A stretch of DNA of 64,000 bases from an uncultured Collinsella sp. (GTDB taxonomy: Bacteria; Actinomycetota; Coriobacteriia; Coriobacteriales; Coriobacteriaceae), in contig CAAECW010000107.1 in the NCBI GenBank assembly GCA_900754445.1, positions 14,643 to 78,642 of the forward strand, read 5' to 3'. Each line of letters opens with the position of its first letter. Within the stretch, counting starts at the first letter, position 1. The position numbers and the translations under genes are program-made. The notes below the pieces were generated by a model that was not told where the DNA came from, did no database searches, and was given only the letters and a program-made list of their open reading frames with translations. This document shows positions 1 to 48,350 of the stretch, piece after piece.

Positions 1-564
1 CCCCAGATGCTCCAGCAAAATCTTGAGGCCGATGAGGACGAGCACGACGCCACCCACGATGGTGGCGGGCTTTTCGTAGCGCGCGCCAAAGGTGTGGCCG
101 ATCGCTACGCCGGCAACGGAGAAGACAAAGGTCGTGATGCCAATGAGCGACACGGCGGGAACGATATCGACCGAGAGCGCGGCAAACGAGATGCCCACGG
201 CAAGCGCGTCAATCGAGGTGGCGATGGCAAGGATTAGATATTCGCCCAGGTCGATCTTTTCGGCATCCTTGCCGTCGCCTTCGTTCTCGTCCTCAGTAAA
301 GGCTTCCCACAGCATCTTGCCGCCGATAAAGGCGAGCAGGATAAAGGCGATCCAGTGGTCGATGGGGCTGATGATGCCCATGAACTGGCTACCAAGGGCC
401 CACCCAATTACGGGCATGCCGGCCTGAAAACCGCCAAAGAACAGGCCGAGCACCACGGCGACTTTAAGGTTGATTTTCTTCATGCCAAGGCCTTTGCAGA
501 TGGAAACGGCAAAGGCGTCCATCGAAAGGCCAACGGCGAGCAACACGAGCTCTGCGAGTCCCAT
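1..564 (-). CDS. mntP: Manganese efflux pump MntP (DUF204), C-terminal end runs off the window
   Basis: The reverse-strand translation begins MGLAELVLLAVGLSMDAFAVSICKGLGM with an ATG at 564-562. It is a repeated two-half membrane protein with SxDA motifs typical of MntP. Confidence 0.7.
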   Translation of the reverse strand, partial: MGLAELVLLAVGLSMDAFAVSICKGLGMKKINLKVAVVLGLFFGGFQAGMPVIGWALGSQFMGIISPIDHWIAFILLAFIGGKMLWEAFTEDENEGDGKDAEKIDLGEYLILAIATSIDALAVGISFAALSVDIVPAVSLIGITTFVFSVAGVAIGHTFGARYEKPATIVGGVVLVLIGLKILLEHLG

Positions 565-1979: not shown

Positions 1980-2707
1980 TGGCGCCCGTATGCGCCGTGG
2001 TCGTTGCCGGTGGCAGCGGCCAGCGCTTTGGAAATCCCGGCGGCAAGCAGCTCGTTAACGTGGCGGGCCGTCCGCTCATGAGCTGGTCCATCCGCGCGTT
2101 CGATCGTAGCGATAAGGTCGGCCATATCGTCGTGGTTTGCCCTGCCGAGCGCCGTGCCGAGATGCGCCGCCTGGCCATCGACCCGTTTGACTATGACACG
2201 CCCATCAGCTTTGCCGATGCCGGCGATACCCGTCAGGATTCCACCCGTGCCGGCGTGCATGCGGTTCCGGCGGGTTTCGAATATGTCGCCATCCACGACG
2301 GCGCTCGTCCGCTCATTACGACCGAGGCCATCGACCACGCTATCGACGTGCTCGTGAGCGACCGTGCCCTCGACGGTGTCGTGTGCGGTCAGCCCGCGAT
2401 CGACACGCTCAAGATCGTTGACGGCGATAATATCGTCGAGACGCCGCCGCGTGAGCTCTACTGGGCAGCGCAGACGCCGCAGATCTTTAGCGTCGATGCT
2501 ATGAAGCGCGCCCACGCTGCAGCCATTGCCGAGGGCTTTATCGGTACCGATGATTCGTCGCTGGTCGAGCGCATGGGTGGGCGCGTCCGCTGCGTCCAGA
2601 GCCCACGCGATAACCTTAAGGTGACGGTGCCCGAGGACCTGCGTCCCGTAACCGCGATTCTGCTTGGCCGCATGGCCGAGGGAGAGGATCTTCCCCATGT
2701 TCAGTAA
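1979..2707 (+). CDS. ispD: 2-C-methyl-D-erythritol 4-phosphate cytidylyltransferase
   Basis: VVAGGSGQRFG N-terminal motif. Its ATG overlaps the disA stop, and it lies in the ispD-ispF arrangement. Confidence 0.88.
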   Translation: MAPVCAVVVAGGSGQRFGNPGGKQLVNVAGRPLMSWSIRAFDRSDKVGHIVVVCPAERRAEMRRLAIDPFDYDTPISFADAGDTRQDSTRAGVHAVPAGFEYVAIHDGARPLITTEAIDHAIDVLVSDRALDGVVCGQPAIDTLKIVDGDNIVETPPRELYWAAQTPQIFSVDAMKRAHAAAIAEGFIGTDDSSLVERMGGRVRCVQSPRDNLKVTVPEDLRPVTAILLGRMAEGEDLPHVQ

Positions 2708-6478: not shown

Positions 6479-7811
6479 ATTCAGCGATGTCGATCATTCT
6501 TTTGAGGCGCCACGTTAGCGCCTCTTTTAGATAAGGCAGTCTCGCTGTTAGAGCATCGTTTTTAGACAGAATCTCGATTGCCTCGTCAACGAAGCCTTCG
6601 AGTTTGTCGCCGTCAAACCAGCCCATGTCCTCGACGAGCAACATCTGTTTGGCGGGGCTTGAATGAAATTGTGCGCTGGTAAAACTGTGCTCTCCTGCCC
6701 GAAGCTCCTCAAGAGAAATGTTGCACCAGAGCGATGAGCCCGAATCGAAGATGGGGGCAGGTCTGCAGGCTAGCGTGTTTACGTTTCGCACAAGGCCAAA
6801 GTTACGCCAATGACGATCGTAGTTGGCGATGATGCCGTCGCACACGATCATGCGGTCAAGGGCATCCTTGACGCCTGTCACCCCGAGCTCCTCGCAGTTT
6901 GCTACGTATCGCTCGTAGTCGGTTAGCCGTTCACCTGCGTTCGCGTACTGGTTTACATAGAACGCAGGGACATACTCTTCTTCATCAGTTAAGAAGACAT
7001 CGCATATGCTCAGGGCGGAAGTGCCCGTGCCCTCGAGCGAGTAAGGCACATAATCGCAGGTGTTTAGGATGCGACGGTGGAGCGTGGTCGCCACCAGCTC
7101 GTTATAAGGTTCCTGGTTCAGGTGCGCTCCTGCCTTATGCAGAATTCGACGCCCGCCCTCGCATGTCCAGTACTTTTGAAGATTGCCGTCCGAGGTGTTG
7201 TCGGGCTTTGCGGCAGCCACTTTTCCCTCTGGGGCGAAGGGTGCAATGGTTAGCGAGACGTCATCAAAGGCATTATTGAAGAAATTGATATCTTCCCACG
7301 CGAGGCCGGAGTCTTGGGGCCTAATCCAATACTGGTCGGATAAGGAGAGGCCAAGATTTCGCTGTACGAGTTCATCGGGAACATCGACTGCGGCTTTTGC
7401 AAGCAGGGAGGCAAGCCCAATGCGTGCGAGCGGGATACCGCGGCCGCGCCACCAGATGCGGAAGGAGTCGAGCGATATGGGGCTATTAGGGCCAAATACT
7501 CCAATAGGGGCGTGGGCGTAATCGATGTCGGCACCGATGTGGGTAAAGTCTTTTCGCGATGTGCTGTAGACCAGCTGAGCGACCTCGTGCGTGCGATTCA
7601 TGAGGGTGAACGCGATCTCGCTCTTACCGTGGCCGCGGCGGGGACGTCCCCCCGTTTTGGTCACGGAGCGGAGTCGCGTGTCGACGCTGTCTTTGTCGAT
7701 GAGCCATACACCAGAAGCCTTGCGGGCATCAAGTGCTCCGTTTTTTATGAGCTCCTGCACCCTGCGCGGAGTGATGCCGAGCAGCTCGGCGGCTTCCTTG
7801 GTAGTAAGCAT
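6471..7811 (-). CDS. HTH-fused HipA-like serine/threonine kinase (YjjJ/HipH-type single-chain HipA homologue)
   Basis: It has an N-terminal excisionase/MerR-like HTH (LTTKEAAELLGITPRRVQELIKNGAL). Its C-terminal HipA catalytic loop IANYDRHWRNFGL matches the HipA DxHxxN consensus. I prefer the start at ATG 7811 (or GTG 7814) over the ORF-track start at 7853, which would lie inside the operator palindrome. Confidence 0.65.
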   Translation of the reverse strand: MLTTKEAAELLGITPRRVQELIKNGALDARKASGVWLIDKDSVDTRLRSVTKTGGRPRRGHGKSEIAFTLMNRTHEVAQLVYSTSRKDFTHIGADIDYAHAPIGVFGPNSPISLDSFRIWWRGRGIPLARIGLASLLAKAAVDVPDELVQRNLGLSLSDQYWIRPQDSGLAWEDINFFNNAFDDVSLTIAPFAPEGKVAAAKPDNTSDGNLQKYWTCEGGRRILHKAGAHLNQEPYNELVATTLHRRILNTCDYVPYSLEGTGTSALSICDVFLTDEEEYVPAFYVNQYANAGERLTDYERYVANCEELGVTGVKDALDRMIVCDGIIANYDRHWRNFGLVRNVNTLACRPAPIFDSGSSLWCNISLEELRAGEHSFTSAQFHSSPAKQMLLVEDMGWFDGDKLEGFVDEAIEILSKNDALTARLPYLKEALTWRLKRMIDIAEWS

Positions 7812-7861
7812 CACGAAACCCTTCGTCAAAACGAATAGTTTTATATATAGCAATTGTAATT

Positions 7862-7889
7862 AAAACTATTCGTTCTGACGAATAGTTTT
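7862..7889. promoter_or_regulatory. Perfect 28-bp palindromic operator (12-bp arms, 4-bp centre) upstream of the HTH-HipA-like gene, plus an extra half-site at 7830-7841
   Basis: AAAACTATTCGT-tctg-ACGAATAGTTTT is a perfect inverted repeat. The half-site ACGAATAGTTTT recurs 20 nt closer to the start codon. I read this as autoregulation by the fused HTH. Confidence 0.55.
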
Positions 7890-7933
7890 GAGATTGAGGG
7901 CGAACCGACAGAAATGAACGGGCCTGGTACCTG

Positions 7934-8035: not shown

Positions 8036-8110
8036 GCCAGTGTGGCGCAACGGTAGCGCAACTGATTTGTAATCAGTGGGTTGCAGGTTCGATTCCTGTC
8101 ACTGGCTCCA
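8036..8110 (+). tRNA. tRNA-Thr (anticodon TGT)
   Basis: Manual cloverleaf fold: acceptor GCCAGTG/CACTGGC, D-arm GCGC-AACGGTA-GCGC, anticodon loop TTTGTAA, T-loop TTCGATT, and an encoded CCA. Confidence 0.85.
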
Positions 8111-8116
8111 TGAGAG

Positions 8117-8156
8117 TTTCGGGCTCTGTTCCTTGTGGGACAGGGCCCGTTTCTAT
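8117..8156 (+). terminator. Terminator-like hairpin plus T-rich tract after tRNA-Thr
   Basis: GGGCTCTGTTCC...GGGACAGGGCCC hairpin followed by GTTTCTATTT. Confidence 0.4.
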
Positions 8157-8203
8157 TTATGTCGACATGTAAGTGGGTTTGACTCCCACCAAGCTTCAGG
8201 TTT

Positions 8204-8420
8204 GTCTCGATCTGTAACACGGGTGGGCTGAAAACCCTCCTTATAGTTACAGATCGAGACAATGCCAAAGGACGGCCGATAACGTCTCGATCTGTAACAC
8301 GAAGAGGCTGAAAACCGTTCTAGCTGTTACAGAGTGAGACGTAAGCCGGGGTCGCCGCGTAGTATCTCGATCTGTAACAGATAGGAGAGGAATGACCCTC
8401 TTACTGTTACAGATTGAGAT
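8204..8420 (+). repeat. Array of three 57-nt long-hairpin repeats at an exact 80-bp period (units 8204-8260, 8284-8340, 8364-8420)
   Basis: Each unit is TCTCGATCTGTAACA-N27-TGTTACAGATCGAGA. The 15-bp outer stem is conserved. The inner 27 nt differ between units but each still forms its own inner stem. Units 1 and 2 share the apical loop CTGAAAA. Confidence 0.8.
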
Positions 8421-8663
8421 GAAAACGGTGAGGCCCCTGGTCTACTTGATTGCACCGGGGAAGCTCCGATCTCGACCTATATATAGGTGCAAATAGGCTG
8501 TTATCGAAGCTCGATCCTGAAGGTGTACTCTACTACACCAAAGTGTTACCTTGGGAAACGTCACCTCAGTATCCAAAACCACCGTCCCTCATATCCCAAC
8601 TCAACAAAACAGCAGGTCAAAGGTATATAGATACGCCCGGGGCCGTGTATCTAGAGGTTTTCG

Positions 8664-8693
8664 TTGACAGCCCCCAAGGTTGCATCGTATTAT
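8664..8693 (+). promoter_or_regulatory. Strong sigma70-type promoter for the tRNA-Tyr/Thr/Met-tuf transcription unit
   Basis: Consensus TTGACA, an 18-nt spacer, then TATTAT, about 60 nt upstream of tRNA-Tyr. It follows an AT-rich low-GC stretch (8440-8660) that contains the ACCTATATATAGGT palindrome. Confidence 0.6.
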
Positions 8694-8755
8694 CTTCTTC
8701 GTTCGCGGGGGCGGCGGTCCAAAAGACCAAAGAACCTGCGGATACTTGAACGATT

Positions 8756-8839
8756 GGGAGTTTGCCCGAGTGGTTAATGGGGACGGGCTGTAAACCCGTT
8801 GGCTCTGCCTACATAGGTTCGAATCCTATAGCTCCCACC
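8756..8839 (+). tRNA. tRNA-Tyr (anticodon GTA), long variable arm
   Basis: Anticodon loop CTGTAAA, long variable arm, T-loop TTCGAAT, acceptor GGGAGTT/AGCTCCC. Confidence 0.8.
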
Positions 8840-8847
8840 CGTCAAGT

Positions 8848-8923
8848 GCCTGTATAGCTCAGTCGGTAGAGCACTTCGTTGGTAACGAAGAGGTCACCAG
8901 TTCAAGTCTGGTTGCAGGCTCCA
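8848..8923 (+). tRNA. tRNA-Thr (anticodon GGT)
   Basis: GCCTGTATAGCTCAGTCGGTAGAGC...; anticodon loop TTGGTAA; T-loop TTCAAGT; CCA encoded. Confidence 0.85.
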
Positions 8924-8926
8924 TCC

Positions 8927-9003
8927 GGCGGTGTAGCTCAGTTGGTTAGAGCACACGGTTCATACCCGTGGCGTCACTGGTTCGAATCCAGTCACCGCTA
9001 CCA
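8927..9003 (+). tRNA. tRNA-Met (anticodon CAT; elongator or lysidine-modified Ile2 type, not initiator)
   Basis: GGCGGTGTAGCTCAGTTGGTTAGAGC...; anticodon loop TTCATAC. The G1-based acceptor stem and the anticodon stem argue against an initiator. Confidence 0.8.
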
Positions 9004-10732: not shown

Positions 10733-10808
10733 ACGCCAGTAGTTCAATTGGTAGAGCATCGGTCTCCAAAACCGAGTGTTGAGGGTTCGAGTCCTTCCTG
10801 GCGTGCCA
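10733..10808 (+). tRNA. tRNA-Trp (anticodon CCA)
   Basis: ACGCCAGTAGTTCAATTGGTAGAGC...; anticodon loop CTCCAAA. Its position between rpmG and secE is conserved. Confidence 0.85.
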
Positions 10809-26454: not shown

Positions 26455-26486
26455 GAGGACGGGCATCCCAGCCCTTCAATAACTTG

Positions 26487-26550
26487 CGGTGAAATAGTTC
26501 CTATCTGGGGCATCAACCAGTCCATCCAGGAACTATTCCACCGCAACTTC
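26487..26550 (+). terminator. Rho-independent terminator after the esterase gene. Its stem base GTTGCGGTGAAATA is shared with the terminator at 30622-30690
   Basis: AACTTGCGGTGAAATAGTTCC-N27-GGAACTATTCCACCGCAACTT followed by CGTTTTT. Confidence 0.7.
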
Positions 26551-30604: not shown

Positions 30605-30621
30605 CCATATCCCCTCATCAG

Positions 30622-30690
30622 TTGCGGTGAAATACGGATTGTTTAGCCCAATAAACCTGGCAAACAGTCCGTATTTCACCGCAACTTATT
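30622..30690 (+). terminator. Rho-independent terminator after the MFS gene. It shares the GTTGCGGTGAAATA stem base with 26487-26550
   Basis: CAGTTGCGGTGAAATACGGATTG-N25-CAGTCCGTATTTCACCGCAACTT followed by ATTTTGGGG. Confidence 0.7.
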
Positions 30691-33453: not shown

Positions 33454-34590
33454 ATGCGTCTGCCCATGAATACCTCGCTTGCCACGCTCAAGCCCTCCGG
33501 CATCCGTCGGATTAACGCGCTCGCCGCCCAGCATCCGGGGTGCATCGCGCTCGCGCTCGGCGAGCCCGATTTTCCCACGCCCGATGTGATTAGCGCCGAG
33601 GTGACCGCCGCACTGGACCGCGGCGACACGCACTATCCGCCCAACAACGGTCGCCCCGCCCTGCGTGAGGCGTTATCTGCCTACATGGGGGATGCGGGCC
33701 TTACGTTTTCGGCGGACGAGGTCATTCTGACCGACGGTGCGACCGAGGCCCTGTCGGCAGCATTCATGGCTATGCTCAACCCAGGCGACGAGGTCATTAT
33801 TCCCACGCCGGCCTTTGGCCTGTACGAGAGCATCGTCGTGGCCAATCACGCCAAGGCGGTCTTTTTGGATACGGAGCCTGCGCAATTCCAGATTGACGAG
33901 GACGCACTTCGTGCTTACGTGACGCCGGCGACCAAGGCCATCGTCATCTGCTCGCCCAACAATCCTACGGGTTGCATCCTCAACACGGCGTCGCTCGACG
34001 CCGTGGCGCGCGTGGCGGAGGAGGCGGGCATCTACGTGGTCTGCGACGATGTATACAACCGCCTGGTCTACGTGGACGGCTACGAGCGCTTTGCCCAGCG
34101 CCACCCGGAGCTACGCGAGCAGACGGTAGTCATCGAGAGCTTCTCCAAACCCTGGGCCATGACCGGCTGGCGTTTGGGCTGGCTCGCAGCCGCAGCCCCC
34201 GTCATCGCCGAGATCGCAAAGGCCCACCAATACTTAGTATCGAGCGCCGTCTCCTTCGAAATGGACGCCGCAGCCCGAGCCCTCACCGTCGACCCAACTC
34301 CCATGCTCGAAGTCTACCGAGCCCGTCGCGAACGCGTACTCGCAGCCTTAGACGCCATGGGCCTCGACGTAGTAGAGCCCGCAGGAGCCTTCTACACTTT
34401 CCCGAGCATCAAAAAGTTCGGCCTAACCAGCGAAGACTTCTGCATCAAAGCCATCAAAGAGGCAAACGTAGCCCTAGTCCCGGGCGACTGTTTCGGAACC
34501 GAAGGCCACATCCGCCTAAGCTACTGCGTCTCCGACGAAAACCTGGACGAAGGCCTCCGCCGCCTGTCCACCTTCATTTCAACCTTGTAG
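33454..34590 (+). CDS. Pyridoxal-phosphate-dependent aminotransferase, class I (aspartate/aromatic aminotransferase family)
   Basis: The SFSKPWAMTGWRLGW PLP-lysine region is present with the fold-type I layout. Confidence 0.85.
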   Translation: MRLPMNTSLATLKPSGIRRINALAAQHPGCIALALGEPDFPTPDVISAEVTAALDRGDTHYPPNNGRPALREALSAYMGDAGLTFSADEVILTDGATEALSAAFMAMLNPGDEVIIPTPAFGLYESIVVANHAKAVFLDTEPAQFQIDEDALRAYVTPATKAIVICSPNNPTGCILNTASLDAVARVAEEAGIYVVCDDVYNRLVYVDGYERFAQRHPELREQTVVIESFSKPWAMTGWRLGWLAAAAPVIAEIAKAHQYLVSSAVSFEMDAAARALTVDPTPMLEVYRARRERVLAALDAMGLDVVEPAGAFYTFPSIKKFGLTSEDFCIKAIKEANVALVPGDCFGTEGHIRLSYCVSDENLDEGLRRLSTFISTL

Positions 34591-34652
34591 CCCTCAGGGA
34601 TGCAACACATCAGCCCACCGACTTAAGGCTTATGAGTGGGGGCGTCGGCCAA

Positions 34653-34852
34653 CGGGAAACCGGGCTGCCCCAAAGTCACCGCAGGCCGCGCCGCCGAAGG
34701 CCAGGCGCAAGGTTTTCGTAGATTCCGCACGAGCCGAAGAGCACTTAATGTGCTCTTCGTGCGAGCCCAGGACCTGACCGAGCGAAAACCTTGCGCCTGG
34801 CCTTCGGCGGCGCGGCCGGATGGTGGAATTGTGTGCAGCCCGGTTTTCCGTT
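34653..34852. repeat. Structured repeat element copy 1: nested long inverted repeats around the conserved core TTCCGCACGAGCCGAAGAGCAC-TTAAT-GTGCTCTTCGTGCGAGCCCAGGAC
   Basis: Outer 15-bp arms GGGAAACCGGGCTGC/GCAGCCCGGTTTTCC and perfect 35-bp middle arms (34688-34722 and 34788-34822). The central hairpin CGAAGAGCAC-TTAAT-GTGCTCTTCG is part of the core. A second copy is at 47627-47766. Confidence 0.75.
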
Positions 34853-34859
34853 GACCGAC

Positions 34860-35095
34860 GCCGGGGTCCCCGCCATAATACTTTCGGTTCACGCACGAAT
34901 CCGCTGCCAGAGACAGCCGGCGCAAACGGGTCTTACCCGCGAGCTTAATGGGACTTCCCGCCAGCCGAGGTGGTCGAGTAGATATGTCTTCTCGCCCCCG
35001 TCGCTCATGCAGCGCGGGGGCTTTCTTTTTGGACATGCCCCCGTCACGTCCTTGTGGCGGACCGTGCCCGGAAAGAATTCGAGGAGGTGTAATTC
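34860..35095 (+). promoter_or_regulatory. rplJ 5' leader (likely the L10(L12)4 autoregulatory leader and promoter region)
   Basis: A GC-rich untranslated region of about 235 nt lies directly upstream of rplJ. Its position matches the ribosomal-protein L10 leader found in many bacteria. Confidence 0.35.
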
Positions 35096-35617
35096 ATGCC
35101 CCAGCAGTACAAAATCGACAAGGTTGCAGAGATCGAGTCCCGTATCGCCGAGAACGCCGGTCTGTTCGTCGTCAACTACAACGGTCTGACGGTTAAGCAG
35201 GCTCAGGAGCTGCGTCATCAGCTTCGCGAGTGCGGCGCCGAGATGAAGGTCTACAAGAACAACCTGGTCAAGATCGCTCTCAAGAACCAGGAGCAGCCCG
35301 AGCTCGACGAGATCCTCGCCGGCCCCGTCGCTTATGTGTTCTACGAGTCCGAGCCGGTCGAGGCCGCTAAGGCCCTTAAGGACTTCTCCGCTAAGTCCAA
35401 GGGCGTCCTTGAGATCAAGGGCGGTATCTCCGACGGCAAGGCCGTTTCCGCTGATGATGTTAAGGCTATCGCCGAGCTGCCCACCAAGGATCAGCTTCTC
35501 GGCCAGATCGCCGGTCTCATCTCCGGTTTCGCTCGCGACATCGCTGTCTGCGTCAACGGCGTTTCCTCTGGTCTCGCTCGTTCGATCCAGCAGGTCTCCG
35601 AGCAGAAGGCAGCCTAG
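35096..35617 (+). CDS. rplJ: 50S ribosomal protein L10
   Basis: MPQQYKIDKVAEIESRIAENAGLFVVNYNGLTVKQAQELR. Confidence 0.93.
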   Translation: MPQQYKIDKVAEIESRIAENAGLFVVNYNGLTVKQAQELRHQLRECGAEMKVYKNNLVKIALKNQEQPELDEILAGPVAYVFYESEPVEAAKALKDFSAKSKGVLEIKGGISDGKAVSADDVKAIAELPTKDQLLGQIAGLISGFARDIAVCVNGVSSGLARSIQQVSEQKAA

Positions 35618-37375: not shown

Positions 37376-37607
37376 AAGAGCTGCGATTGCCGGCTCTCTG
37401 TTCACAGAAAATATATGAACAGATGTTCGATACACATACATCTACCTGCGTGTTTTCTGTCGAAAAACTTTGCTACTCCAAAAACTCAATCGCGTCAAGG
37501 CTTTTCTTGCCCAACGGTCGGTACCTGATAAACTATTAGGTTGCGATAACTGGCGAAGCTATGCCTCGCCAACCCACCGAGCATTTCCGTGAAGGAGGAA
37601 AAACCTG

Positions 37608-41099
<3,492 letters not shown>

Positions 41100-41105
41100 T
41101 TGACT

Positions 41106-45584
<4,479 letters not shown>

Positions 45585-46421: not shown

Positions 46422-47448
46422 CGACCTTGCAGATCGCGTCCTAAATACCGCTGCGGGTGAGCCGCTTCATCGAAAGGGCCACGCGAAGCCTCTCTATGTT
46501 GCCGTAATCGGATGTCTTGCCGGAGTTTTGGCGACTGGAGGGGTCGCCTACGCCGTTGTCAATTCCGGCTATTTTGCCTCAGCCTGGGGAAACCACGGCA
46601 ACGGGGATTCCATTACCTGGACCAACGGTGGCTCATCGGGGACTCAATATACCTACACCAGAGAGTTTGGTGACGGTATCGCGCCCCAAAGCCTGGAGGG
46701 CGCAGTCCAGAAGGTTGATCTGTCCGTCGAGGGTAATGGCTATACGCTCGATATCCATGAGATGGCTATTGACCAAAACGGCTGCGGAGCCGTGACGTTT
46801 ACGTTGTCCAATCCAAATGGCGTTAACTACTACAAGCCGGCAGCAGAGACAGGCGAACTTGTTCTCTATGGTGAAGAAGAACAAGGCATCGGCACGCCCG
46901 ATATGAAGTTCGGCGAGGAATGGCCTGACACACGCAGCACAATTGATAAGGACACATCAAGCGATACTGTCATTAATGGCACGATGTACTTTGCCGCTAT
47001 GGATCGCGAGCGAGATTTGCAACATGCGGTCACCTGGAATATCCACTGGACCGAGGGTGAAGGTGAGAGTGCGAGGCGGTTTGAGGCGTCGACACCCGAG
47101 TTCAATATTGGAGCGTACGTCGATACAAAGGAACTCCGCTCCGGTGACTCGCCTCTTGAGATTAGCCCGTTTTCCATCCAGACGCACATCGATGATTTGG
47201 GCTATGAAGCAGTTGATAATAAGCTGACCGTCAGCTACAAGGATGGATCGGAGCAGATTATCGAAGATGACGACGCAGGGGTGTTCAACTTATATTTTTC
47301 TTATGGGCGCAATAGCGGAGAGAACATCTGGGTGCCAACGAAGTTGATTGATGTCGAACAAGTGGTCTCAGTAACGCTTGAGGGCACGAGGTGCACGTCA
47401 ACAGGGGAGACCGAAACAAAAGTACCCTTTACCATCGTCTATTCGTAA
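46372..47448 (+). CDS. Putative membrane-anchored anti-sigma factor cognate to the ECF sigma
   Basis: GTG start with a GAGGAGGG RBS. It overlaps the sigma gene by 50 nt. It has a short cytoplasmic N-terminus, a single TM (LYVAVIGCLAGVLATGGVAYAVV) and a ~290-aa extracytoplasmic domain. Confidence 0.6.
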   Translation: MKSNQIKQAFESIQADSDLADRVLNTAAGEPLHRKGHAKPLYVAVIGCLAGVLATGGVAYAVVNSGYFASAWGNHGNGDSITWTNGGSSGTQYTYTREFGDGIAPQSLEGAVQKVDLSVEGNGYTLDIHEMAIDQNGCGAVTFTLSNPNGVNYYKPAAETGELVLYGEEEQGIGTPDMKFGEEWPDTRSTIDKDTSSDTVINGTMYFAAMDRERDLQHAVTWNIHWTEGEGESARRFEASTPEFNIGAYVDTKELRSGDSPLEISPFSIQTHIDDLGYEAVDNKLTVSYKDGSEQIIEDDDAGVFNLYFSYGRNSGENIWVPTKLIDVEQVVSVTLEGTRCTSTGETETKVPFTIVYS

Positions 47449-47566
47449 GGTCTGAGGCCGCTTCCTACTAGGGGAAGCGGCCTCTTTTGCGTTAAATGGA
47501 AACGCCGCCGATTTCCATGCGTCAGATGAGAGCAGATTACCTCTGGAGCGCGACGTTTCACCAGAT

Positions 47567-47626: not shown

Positions 47627-47766
47627 CGGATTCCCGGCCCGGGCGGCCGGCGGCTTAAGTTTGTCGCGAGTTCCGCACGAGCCGGAGAGCACTTAATGTG
47701 CTCTCCGTGCGAGTCAGGACTGTAGAGCAGCAAACTTAACCCCCGCGCCGCCCGGTCCGGGAATCC
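47627..47766. repeat. Structured repeat element copy 2: core TTCCGCACGAGCCGGAGAGCAC-TTAAT-GTGCTCTCCGTGCGAGTCAGGAC flanked by self-complementary ~36-nt arms
   Basis: It shares the core with 34653-34852. An A:T to G:C compensatory pair change keeps the 10-bp central hairpin intact. The outer arms differ in sequence from copy 1 but still pair with each other (about 28/36). Confidence 0.75.
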
Positions 47767-47972
47767 ACCCCCGCGCACAGAAAGGGATTCCTTTTGTGTA
47801 GGCTTTGCGGAAATGTGCCAATTTTGGGATACGCCCGGCGGCGTGGTCTGTTGACGGCACAGCTAACGCCACGTATCCTATCGAACTGCGTGTTTCGTAG
47901 GGGGATGCTGACCCCTCGATTCAAGCCGTTGCACTTTACAGAAAGCTGGAATCATTCGAGAAGGAGTACGCT

Positions 47973-48350
47973 TTGCCTACTATTAACCAGCTGGTTCGCC
48001 AGGGCCGTCGTTCCGTGCCCAAGAAGTCCAAGAACGCTGCTCTGCAGCACAACTCCCAGAAGCGCGGCGTGTGCACCCGCGTCTTCACCACGAGCCCCAA
48101 GAAGCCGAACTCGGCTCTTCGTAAGGTTGCCCGTGTTCGCCTTGTCAACGGCATCGAAGTTACTGCTTACATCCCGGGTGAGGGCCACAACCTGCAGGAG
48201 CACTCCATCGTGCTCGTCCGCGGCGGTCGTGTCCGTGACCTCCCTGGTGTCCGTTATCACGTCATCCGTGGCGCCTACGACGCTGCTCCGGTCCAGAACC
48301 GTATGCAGGCCCGTTCCAAGTACGGTGCTAAGCGCCCCAAGGCCAAATAA
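47973..48350 (+). CDS. rpsL: 30S ribosomal protein S12
   Basis: TTG start with an AAGGAG RBS. (M)[12 protein letters not shown]...[11 protein letters not shown]. Confidence 0.95.

Follow-up and report, generated by a model that had tools for sequence, protein, structure and literature searches.

Two long hairpins in a 64,000-nt stretch of DNA from an uncultured Collinsella sp. (hereafter the window) are probably copies of a single Collinsella-specific, dispersed palindromic repeat that resembles REP and MITE sequences. The unit is ~130-165 bp in length and consists of two rapidly diverging homologous arms around a conserved asymmetric core, which as a single strand forms a hairpin of 15 bp with a bulge, on top of a short lower helix. 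On this best-supported reading, the element has three unusual properties, namely the conservation of a structured, asymmetric apex, the renewal and extension of its stems from the host flank, and a strict orientation relative to the adjacent open reading frame (ORF).

Inspection of the window confirmed the hairpins that an initial annotation had proposed at both sites, each with long stems around a shared asymmetric core of ~65 nt. The perfect 35-bp arms described for copy 1 exist, although they lie at 34684-34718/34783-34817 and not at 34688-34722/34788-34822, an offset of 4-5 nt. The outer arms, given as 15 bp, do pair and are part of a longer 37-nt pair, 84% complementary, at 34641-34677/34826-34862. 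Copy 2 was read correctly as having the same core with an A:T to G:C double change in its apical hairpin. This hairpin is CGAAGAGCAC/TTAAT/GTGCTCTTCG at 34735-34759 in copy 1 and CGGAGAGCAC/TTAAT/GTGCTCTCCG at 47683-47707 in copy 2. The parts of the two copies are as follows.

34641-34677, no strand assigned: left outer arm of copy 1, 37 nt, 84% complementary to 34826-34862; varies between strains, its partner being constant
34684-34718, no strand assigned: left inner arm of copy 1, 35 nt, 100% complementary to 34783-34817; arm columns covary across loci
34719-34782, + strand: conserved asymmetric core of copy 1, supported by the core fold test
34722-34726 with 34770-34773: lower helix of the copy 1 core, ATTCC with GGA(C)
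34730-34734 with 34761-34765: middle helix of the copy 1 core, CGAGC with GCGAG, tandem G·A inside
34735-34744 with 34750-34759: 10-bp apical stem of the copy 1 core, loop TTAAT at 34745-34749, T 34760 bulged
34783-34817, no strand assigned: right inner arm of copy 1, pairs with 34684-34718
34826-34862, no strand assigned: right outer arm of copy 1, ancestral promoter-upstream sequence that overlaps the -35 box
47628-47663, no strand assigned: left arm of copy 2, 36 nt, 86% complementary to 47731-47766
47664-47730, + strand: conserved core of copy 2, covariance model score 103.5 bits
47669-47674: lower helix strand of the copy 2 core, AGTTCC
47678-47682 with 47709-47713: middle helix of the copy 2 core, CGAGC with GCGAG
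47683-47692 with 47698-47707: apical stem of the copy 2 core, loop TTAAT at 47693-47697
47731-47766, no strand assigned: right arm of copy 2, 36 nt, pairs with 47628-47663

In the 64-kb window, a 41-nt pattern for the core matches at exactly 2 positions, compared with 0 in 100 shuffles. Across the same 64 kb, a covariance model recovers the two copies only, both on the + strand and at 103.5 and 102 bits, where the reverse strands of these copies score 38.3 and 27.8 bits and the best match elsewhere in the window is a generic hairpin at 26.6 bits. RNA folding yields -177.2 kcal/mol for copy 1 (z -14.7) and -105.6 kcal/mol for copy 2 (z -6.4). Other inverted repeats are also present in the window. 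Those at 30617-30689 and 26481-26549 have a common motif, TTGCGGTGAAATA / TATTTCACCGCAA, and look like operator palindromes of a different family, while an AT-rich 34-nt inverted repeat (7810-7894) and a pair of 64-nt arms with 72% complementarity (8276-8428) adjoin a tRNA cluster (8036-9000 and 10733-10805).

The genome-wide core search suggested with the initial annotation, which took copies without paired flanks as evidence against its reading, placed the core at at least 17 intergenic locus groups, or about 8 per Mb, in every Collinsella genome sampled, with flanks that pair in nearly all copies. All copies are intergenic and adjoin unrelated genes with housekeeping roles, among them pnp, valS, def, uvrD and tsaD. 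With one genome per species, the pattern CGNNGAGCACTTAATGTGCTCNNCG identified at least 120 loci that carry the core, and the matches listed all belong to Collinsella or Coriobacteriaceae, bar a few evidently mis-binned contigs. A typical Collinsella element with its flanks also occurs on CAVHBE010000073.1 (L033), a contig under the name Methanobrevibacter smithii that is probably mis-binned. A pattern for the lower core revealed at least 120 further loci in gut metagenomes, with at least 43 inner-core variants and two apical loop types among the matches listed. The window itself is C. aerofaciens-like, and in an annotated 900-kb record of C. aerofaciens that is syntenic with it, the element occurs at 7 places. 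This record (L125; NZ_OY725717.1, 537258-567494) is labelled 'plasmid 6'; since it carries rplJL-rpoBC-rpsL, it is a piece of chromosome mislabelled as a plasmid. It also holds an IS30 transposase between rplL and the NTP-transferase gene, where the window has no IS30. About 20 contigs of metagenome-assembled genomes (MAGs) end inside the element, which makes the repeat a systematic assembly break point in Collinsella. Such contigs include L010, L011, L014, L016, L025, L045, L049, L053, L059, L078, L079 and L090, and further L094, L096, L104, L107, L108 and L113.

Searches against known families and other replicons gave no counterpart. The Rfam check that had been proposed matched no family to the element: at both sites, with the gathering score and with E values up to 10, nothing relevant was found and only tRNAs reach the gathering score. 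Matches below threshold at the element were generic long-hairpin (miRNA-like) models only, and neither Collinsella-1 nor a ribosomal-protein leader model reached the gathering score. A phage or viral origin was rejected, as phage records gave a chance 46-nt match alone and viral contigs gave none, and so was a plasmid origin, for which the only match is the mislabelled chromosome piece. No described Collinsella repeat or hairpin corresponding to the element was found in the literature, and the core sequence is absent from the 200 of 408 supplementary files searched of the gut structured-RNA catalogue PMC8040213. The element is a previously undescribed repeat of the gut genus Collinsella.

To describe the conservation of the unit, 25 representatives were aligned. 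Approximately 50 core positions are invariant among them, and the arms differ yet pair. In the arm-plus-core alignment, 21 of the 37 predicted pairs have changed on both sides, and one-sided changes are almost nil. The core fold was tested separately with 24 distinct cores, 20 pairs and 500 shuffles, using slid registers as a control. At its base, the tested fold has a lower helix of AGT(T)CC with GGACT followed by a 3x2 internal loop; above these are the middle helix CGAGC/GCGAG with its tandem G·A, a bulged T, the 10-bp apical stem and the loop TTAAT. Inspection of the test results indicates that 89% of cells are paired, that 0 of 500 shuffles attain the score of the fold, and that pairing drops to 30-46% in slid registers. 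Double changes occur in 7 of the 20 pairs (37 doubly changed cells), such that the compensatory change noticed initially is one instance of extensive covariation. Of the 24 distinct cores, 4 have a fully Watson-Crick segment (CGCAA/TTGCG) in place of the tandem G·A in the middle helix. In Collinsella species that are more distant, the lower core is retained, but the apical stems are altogether different and a second type of loop (CC-AGY-GG) occurs. Together, the fold test and the double changes establish that the core is a genuine single-strand fold; the covariation is equally compatible with a fold in RNA and one in single-stranded or cruciform DNA.

Between orthologues, the cores have an identity of 0.83-1.0, and 12 of the 14 pairs compared reach 0.97-1.0. 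A core that is nearly invariant within each locus, in subtypes that are specific to a locus and maintained from one species to the next, suggests that it is under constraint; the near-invariance by itself points to a constraint at host level, which counts against the REP/MITE-like reading. The proposal of a real, conserved and structured element is borne out. The orthologue of the def-locus element in L002 (6782-6890) keeps its long palindromic arms with a degenerate core from which the 25-nt apical hairpin has been lost.

The arms had been described as simply different between the two window copies and are in fact diverged homologues. They have a loose consensus across loci, ...CCCGG-GCGG...(C)ATA(T)AAGG-TYNA-TCGCGAG, which indicates that the whole ~130-165-bp unit is homologous between loci and that conservation declines outwards from the centre. 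Arm identity between orthologues is patchy and ranges over 0.63-0.98, compared with 0.80-0.90 at third codon positions. Hypermutation of the arms was considered and set aside, as the patchy divergence better fits diverged alleles and recombination. Exchange of arms between paralogues was rejected because no arm words are common to loci, and a diversity-generating (DGR), retron or CRISPR-like process was rejected because there is no reverse transcriptase, no adenine-specific mismatch pattern in the arms and no foreign arm match.

Two observations address the level at which the palindrome arises. Stems under RNA-level selection normally accumulate G·U pairs. Here, G·T and A·C account for 22 versus 33 of 106 unique stem mismatches in class A and for 20 versus 39 of 139 in class B, so that wobble pairs are not enriched on either strand and the orientation classes are alike; for this reason wobble asymmetry was dropped as an indicator of an RNA strand. 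At at least 7 loci, moreover, the distal arm repeats in inverted form either a -35 box or, with some divergence, the coding 3' end of the neighbouring gene, and the extended palindromes stay in register to 90-140 nt from the core. The coding 3' ends copied in this way belong to a glycosyltransferase gene, tsaD, def, uvrD and valS, with z values of 5 to 11.6 relative to shuffles (L003, L022/L072, L031, L034/L077 and L106). The lack of G·U enrichment and the inverted copies of coding sequence argue that the palindrome is built at the DNA level, and on both counts the suggestion of an ncRNA does not hold for the long stems.

The rplJ locus reveals the direction of copying. Its right outer arm is invariant, overlaps the -35 box and is present in species without the element, where the empty sites of L121 and L124 contain GGATGGTGGAATTGTGTGC...TTGACC. 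The left outer arm, in contrast, is variable and is missing in these two species. This pattern and the copied coding ends identify the gene-proximal arm as ancestral and the distal arm as the copy. Since the distal arm copies a functional flank, inverted duplication at the DNA level is required.

Comparison of orthologous sites provides evidence for gain or loss of the whole unit. A unit of ~165 nt including its arms lies directly 3' of a stop codon and upstream of a canonical terminator in L213 and L036 and is missing in L077 and L034. In L097, the unit sits inside a short GC hairpin with a T tract, and L114 and L048 have the short hairpin alone. At the rplJ locus, the unit is missing in L121 and L124 and present in L122, L123 and the window. 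Dispersed copies and presence or absence at orthologous sites make the MITE-like element the best of the three options offered initially, which also included an ncRNA and a protein-binding cruciform. An empty site could have arisen by deletion and need not represent the state before insertion, and these pairs are compatible with either gain or loss. No clear target-site duplication was seen at two filled/empty junctions or at 29 arm boundaries. No two loci have arms in common (no 12-mers beyond GC-rich chance matches), so no recent transposition is visible, and no transposase or other recurrent gene was found in ~1.8 Mb of flanks. Insertion into terminator loops was rejected as a general rule, as L097 alone fits and a U tract is missing from most copies; among 30 representative elements, L097 is the only one whose flanks contain T or A runs. 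In L036, inverted elements at 346-455 (-) and 2583-2693 (+) flank a 2.2-kb insert that is missing at the orthologous L034 and L077 sites. The insert has two ORFs of 287 and 342 aa, neither of which has a Pfam match.

Recombination between copies has also left traces. Distinct arm alleles coexist at one locus, and three hybrids (L109 4549-4663, L070 1122-1232 and L068 5082-5192) combine arms from different loci or alleles that no longer pair; these are natural recombinants that crossed over within the core. In L142 (2150-2750), which was compared with L022 (6950-7650) and L001 (2707-2880), an inverted core connects the tsaD locus, represented by its right arm and flank, with the reverse-complemented flank of the rpsL-locus element, a junction indicative of a chromosomal inversion between two dispersed cores. 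On a smaller scale, L213 (5969-6018) and L077 (4540-4588) have identical arms and a middle helix changed from CGAGC/GCGAG to CGCAA/CTTGCG, which indicates a short gene-conversion patch between dispersed cores.

The element follows a rule of position and orientation. With the core written as in the initial annotation, the nearest ORF boundary lies to its right at 46-68 nt, while the left side of the core is never nearer than ~69 nt to an ORF boundary and usually >110 nt away. At ~16-18 loci this boundary is an antisense stop codon, and the element begins 10-20 nt after it. The boundary is a same-strand start codon in L002 and L008, at 61 and 54 nt, respectively, and at the rplJ locus it is the -35 box at 78 nt. 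An independent metagenome sample has a stop codon 40-80 nt to the right in 9 of 24 locus groups versus 2 of 27 to the left. Inverted pairs of elements occur 100-280 nt apart between convergent genes, and each member obeys the rule, which excludes an explanation by replication direction. A polar insulator against rightward transcription was likewise rejected because it fails where both neighbouring genes run leftward. Candidate explanations are polar copying from right to left combined with selection against overwriting genes, or the choice of target by an enzyme. An RNA-level role fits the majority orientation class and not the same spacing at sense start codons. Strict orientation to the adjacent ORF is not what a simple model of selfish repeats would predict; it counts against the REP/MITE-like reading and may reflect function.

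Both window copies fall in the minority orientation class, sense to both neighbours. Copy 1 is flanked by a class I/II aminotransferase gene (33454-34590) on one side and rplJ (35096-35617) on the other; the neighbours of copy 2 are a gene pair for an ECF sigma factor and a DUF4179 protein (end at 47448) and rpsL (47973-48350). Signals in these spacers, in which promoters are consensus predictions rather than mapped transcript ends, are as follows.

34851-34879, + strand: predicted rplJ promoter, TTGACC-17-CATAAT, 10 of 12 consensus matches with 0.2 sites expected in shuffles; outside the element core
34889-35036, + strand: weak match to the L10 leader (RF00557), 31.1 bits against a gathering score of 44; downstream of copy 1
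47454-47484, + strand: intrinsic terminator that belongs to the DUF4179 gene, with a 13-bp stem and TTTT after it; upstream of copy 2
47851-47879, + strand: predicted rpsL promoter, TTGACG-17-TATCCT, from the consensus scan; downstream of copy 2

Neither window copy has a terminator-like site of its own, in that the GC-rich hairpin followed by a U tract that marks an intrinsic terminator was found at neither. A 2629-aa ORF antisense to rpoB/rpoC (37536-45425, - strand) is a GC-rich shadow ORF and not a gene.

Several readings of the element have to be weighed against these results. Both window copies precede ribosomal-protein operons, and they could in principle form a regulatory leader or attenuator specific to such operons within the two 5' UTRs. 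This is extremely improbable. The predicted promoters lie downstream of both copies, as does the weak L10-leader match at copy 1, which locates both elements in promoter-upstream spacers outside the leaders; the related species L121 and L124 have the rplJ promoter and leader without the element. At least 15 other loci adjoin unrelated genes, and the at least 17 loci as a whole mostly follow the stop codons of housekeeping genes. An element that adjoins so many unrelated genes is not a ribosomal-protein regulator, the association with ribosomal-protein operons is coincidental, and the window copies are most likely passive family members that at most insulate rplJ and rpsL from read-through. A broader RNA reading is that of a structured element acting in cis within mRNA, for the most part in 3' UTRs at 10-20 nt from the stop, maintained by RNA-level selection and serving as a protein-binding, RNase-processing or 3'-end-stabilising module. 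Strong covariation in core and arms is consistent with it, as are the conserved features other than Watson-Crick pairs (tandem G·A, bulged base and invariant loop), the ~16-18 loci placed right after a stop in fixed orientation, with inverted pairs between convergent genes conforming, and the copies located between a stop codon and a canonical terminator. We nevertheless regard it as unlikely. A cis-regulatory RNA is expected to keep one strand and tolerate G·U, and here there are two orientation classes, with no wobble enrichment in stem mismatches on either strand. The orientation to flanking transcription is reversed at ~7 loci, both window copies included, and some of these lie upstream of predicted promoters. 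The 46-68 nt spacing holds at antisense stops and at the sense starts of L002 and L008 as well, which an RNA role does not explain, the arms hold inverted duplicates of coding sequence, and no Rfam family matches. Covariation that supports the helices was indeed found, and it suits folded single-stranded DNA equally well.

BIMEs are bound by gyrase and IHF, and the Collinsella element might similarly be a host site at the DNA level, where a cruciform or duplex core at gene ends is bound by a nucleoid, topoisomerase or recombination protein to manage supercoiling or form polar barriers. Orientation and spacing to ORF boundaries that are independent of gene strand agree with such a site, as do stems that behave as DNA palindromes, a core constrained at every locus, and copies placed ahead of two strong promoters, those of rplJ and rpsL, as well as between convergent genes. 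A duplex operator, however, would need no compensatory changes in both half-sites, and presence/absence polymorphism is tolerated along with hybrids whose arms do not pair. Positive supercoiling between convergent genes, moreover, works against cruciform extrusion. On balance we consider a host DNA site quite improbable.

The dispersed REP/MITE-like repeat remains our preferred reading, and a mechanism for it can be proposed. Arm complementarity would be kept by intrastrand fold-back or template-switch copying seeded by the hairpin, and not by RNA-level selection. The core would stay near-invariant as the recognition hairpin of a trans-acting protein, either transposase-like or a host factor, with short gene conversion between copies helping to keep it uniform; the core hairpin is thus probably a protein recognition site, albeit a putative one. 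Most copies would be transcribed as long hairpins in 3' UTRs, where they may act in the manner of REP elements by blocking or processing mRNA 3' ends. In E. coli, REP elements have a stabilising effect on the mRNA upstream and, when no more than about 15 nt from a stop codon, can cause terminating ribosomes to stall; by analogy copies that follow stop codons could act likewise. A stronger form of this mechanism, in which a protein that recognises the core hairpin drives polar, recurrent fold-back duplication of the ORF-facing flank so that the element builds and renews its own stems, seems rather unlikely to us. Were it true, the repeat would be a bacterial element of a new, self-palindromising kind or a gene-end module domesticated by the host, and not a conventional MITE or REP.

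Collinsella is an abundant genus of the human gut, and the repeat marks about 20 gene ends per genome. Because it breaks short-read assemblies and mediates inversions and hybrid junctions, knowledge of the repeat aids assembly, annotation and the interpretation of rearrangements. It also carries a warning for scans of RNA structure, namely that abundant compensatory changes in long stems can arise from palindrome maintenance at the DNA level. The reversal of the conservation known from REPs, the strict orientation and spacing to ORFs and the coding sequence copied into arms could together reveal a new form of protein-hairpin recognition at gene ends.

Comparison with known systems places the element among, and apart from, several families. 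The L10 leader (RF00557) also lies upstream of rplJ, but the leader-like region at 34889-35036 is a separate sequence, the element being upstream of the predicted promoter and missing from related species that keep the leader. Integron attC sites are variable imperfect palindromes that work as folded single strands and whose structure and extrahelical bases are conserved. They conserve the base (R and L boxes) and vary at the apex, whereas the Collinsella element does the opposite; conserved R/L boxes around a variable apex were not found, and neither were an integrase or a cassette array, the copies being scattered beside housekeeping genes. In quasipalindrome template switching and fold-back duplication, as in E. 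coli and Salmonella, a short hairpin seeds the inverted copying of one flank, a process that accounts for perfect arms containing coding or promoter sequence. It is known as a sporadic mutation and is not known to recur throughout a conserved repeat family with fixed polarity to the adjacent ORF.

MITEs (Correia, ERIC, RUP and BOX) resemble the element as non-coding units of 100-200 bp with inverted-repeat arms that are dispersed in intergenic DNA and present or absent at orthologous sites; co-transcription with genes is a further trait of MITEs that the element probably shares. Whole-unit presence or absence at such sites was observed here. In place of conserved terminal inverted repeats that match an IS, however, the Collinsella element has only a weak GG...CC signature at its tips. 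Its arms are loosely conserved between copies, conservation declines with distance from the centre, inverted duplication of flanking DNA, coding sequence included, has secondarily lengthened the palindrome, and no autonomous IS partner was seen in ~1.8 Mb of flanks, nor a clear target-site duplication at the junctions. REP, BIME and REPIN sequences of proteobacteria, which are associated with RAYT transposases, are likewise extragenic palindromic repeats with tens of copies and long hairpins, lie mostly 3' of genes and between convergent genes, often ~15-20 nt from the stop, and are substrates for rearrangements. The many extragenic copies of the Collinsella element are enriched at the same two kinds of site. 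They are fewer, at about 8 per Mb, no RAYT (Y1/HUH) gene was found in the ~1.8 Mb of flanks examined, and a conserved tagged stem is lacking, in that arms differ among the 17 locus groups and there is no general GTAG or CGTC tag, GTAG being confined to a 'TCGTAGA' subtype. REPs conserve the stem and vary the loop or spacer, whereas the Collinsella element conserves a structured, asymmetric apex of 55-75 nt and lets its stems diverge. The element is therefore closest to REPs and MITEs, yet departs from the sequence features that define them, and is best described as a variant rather than a conventional member of either class.
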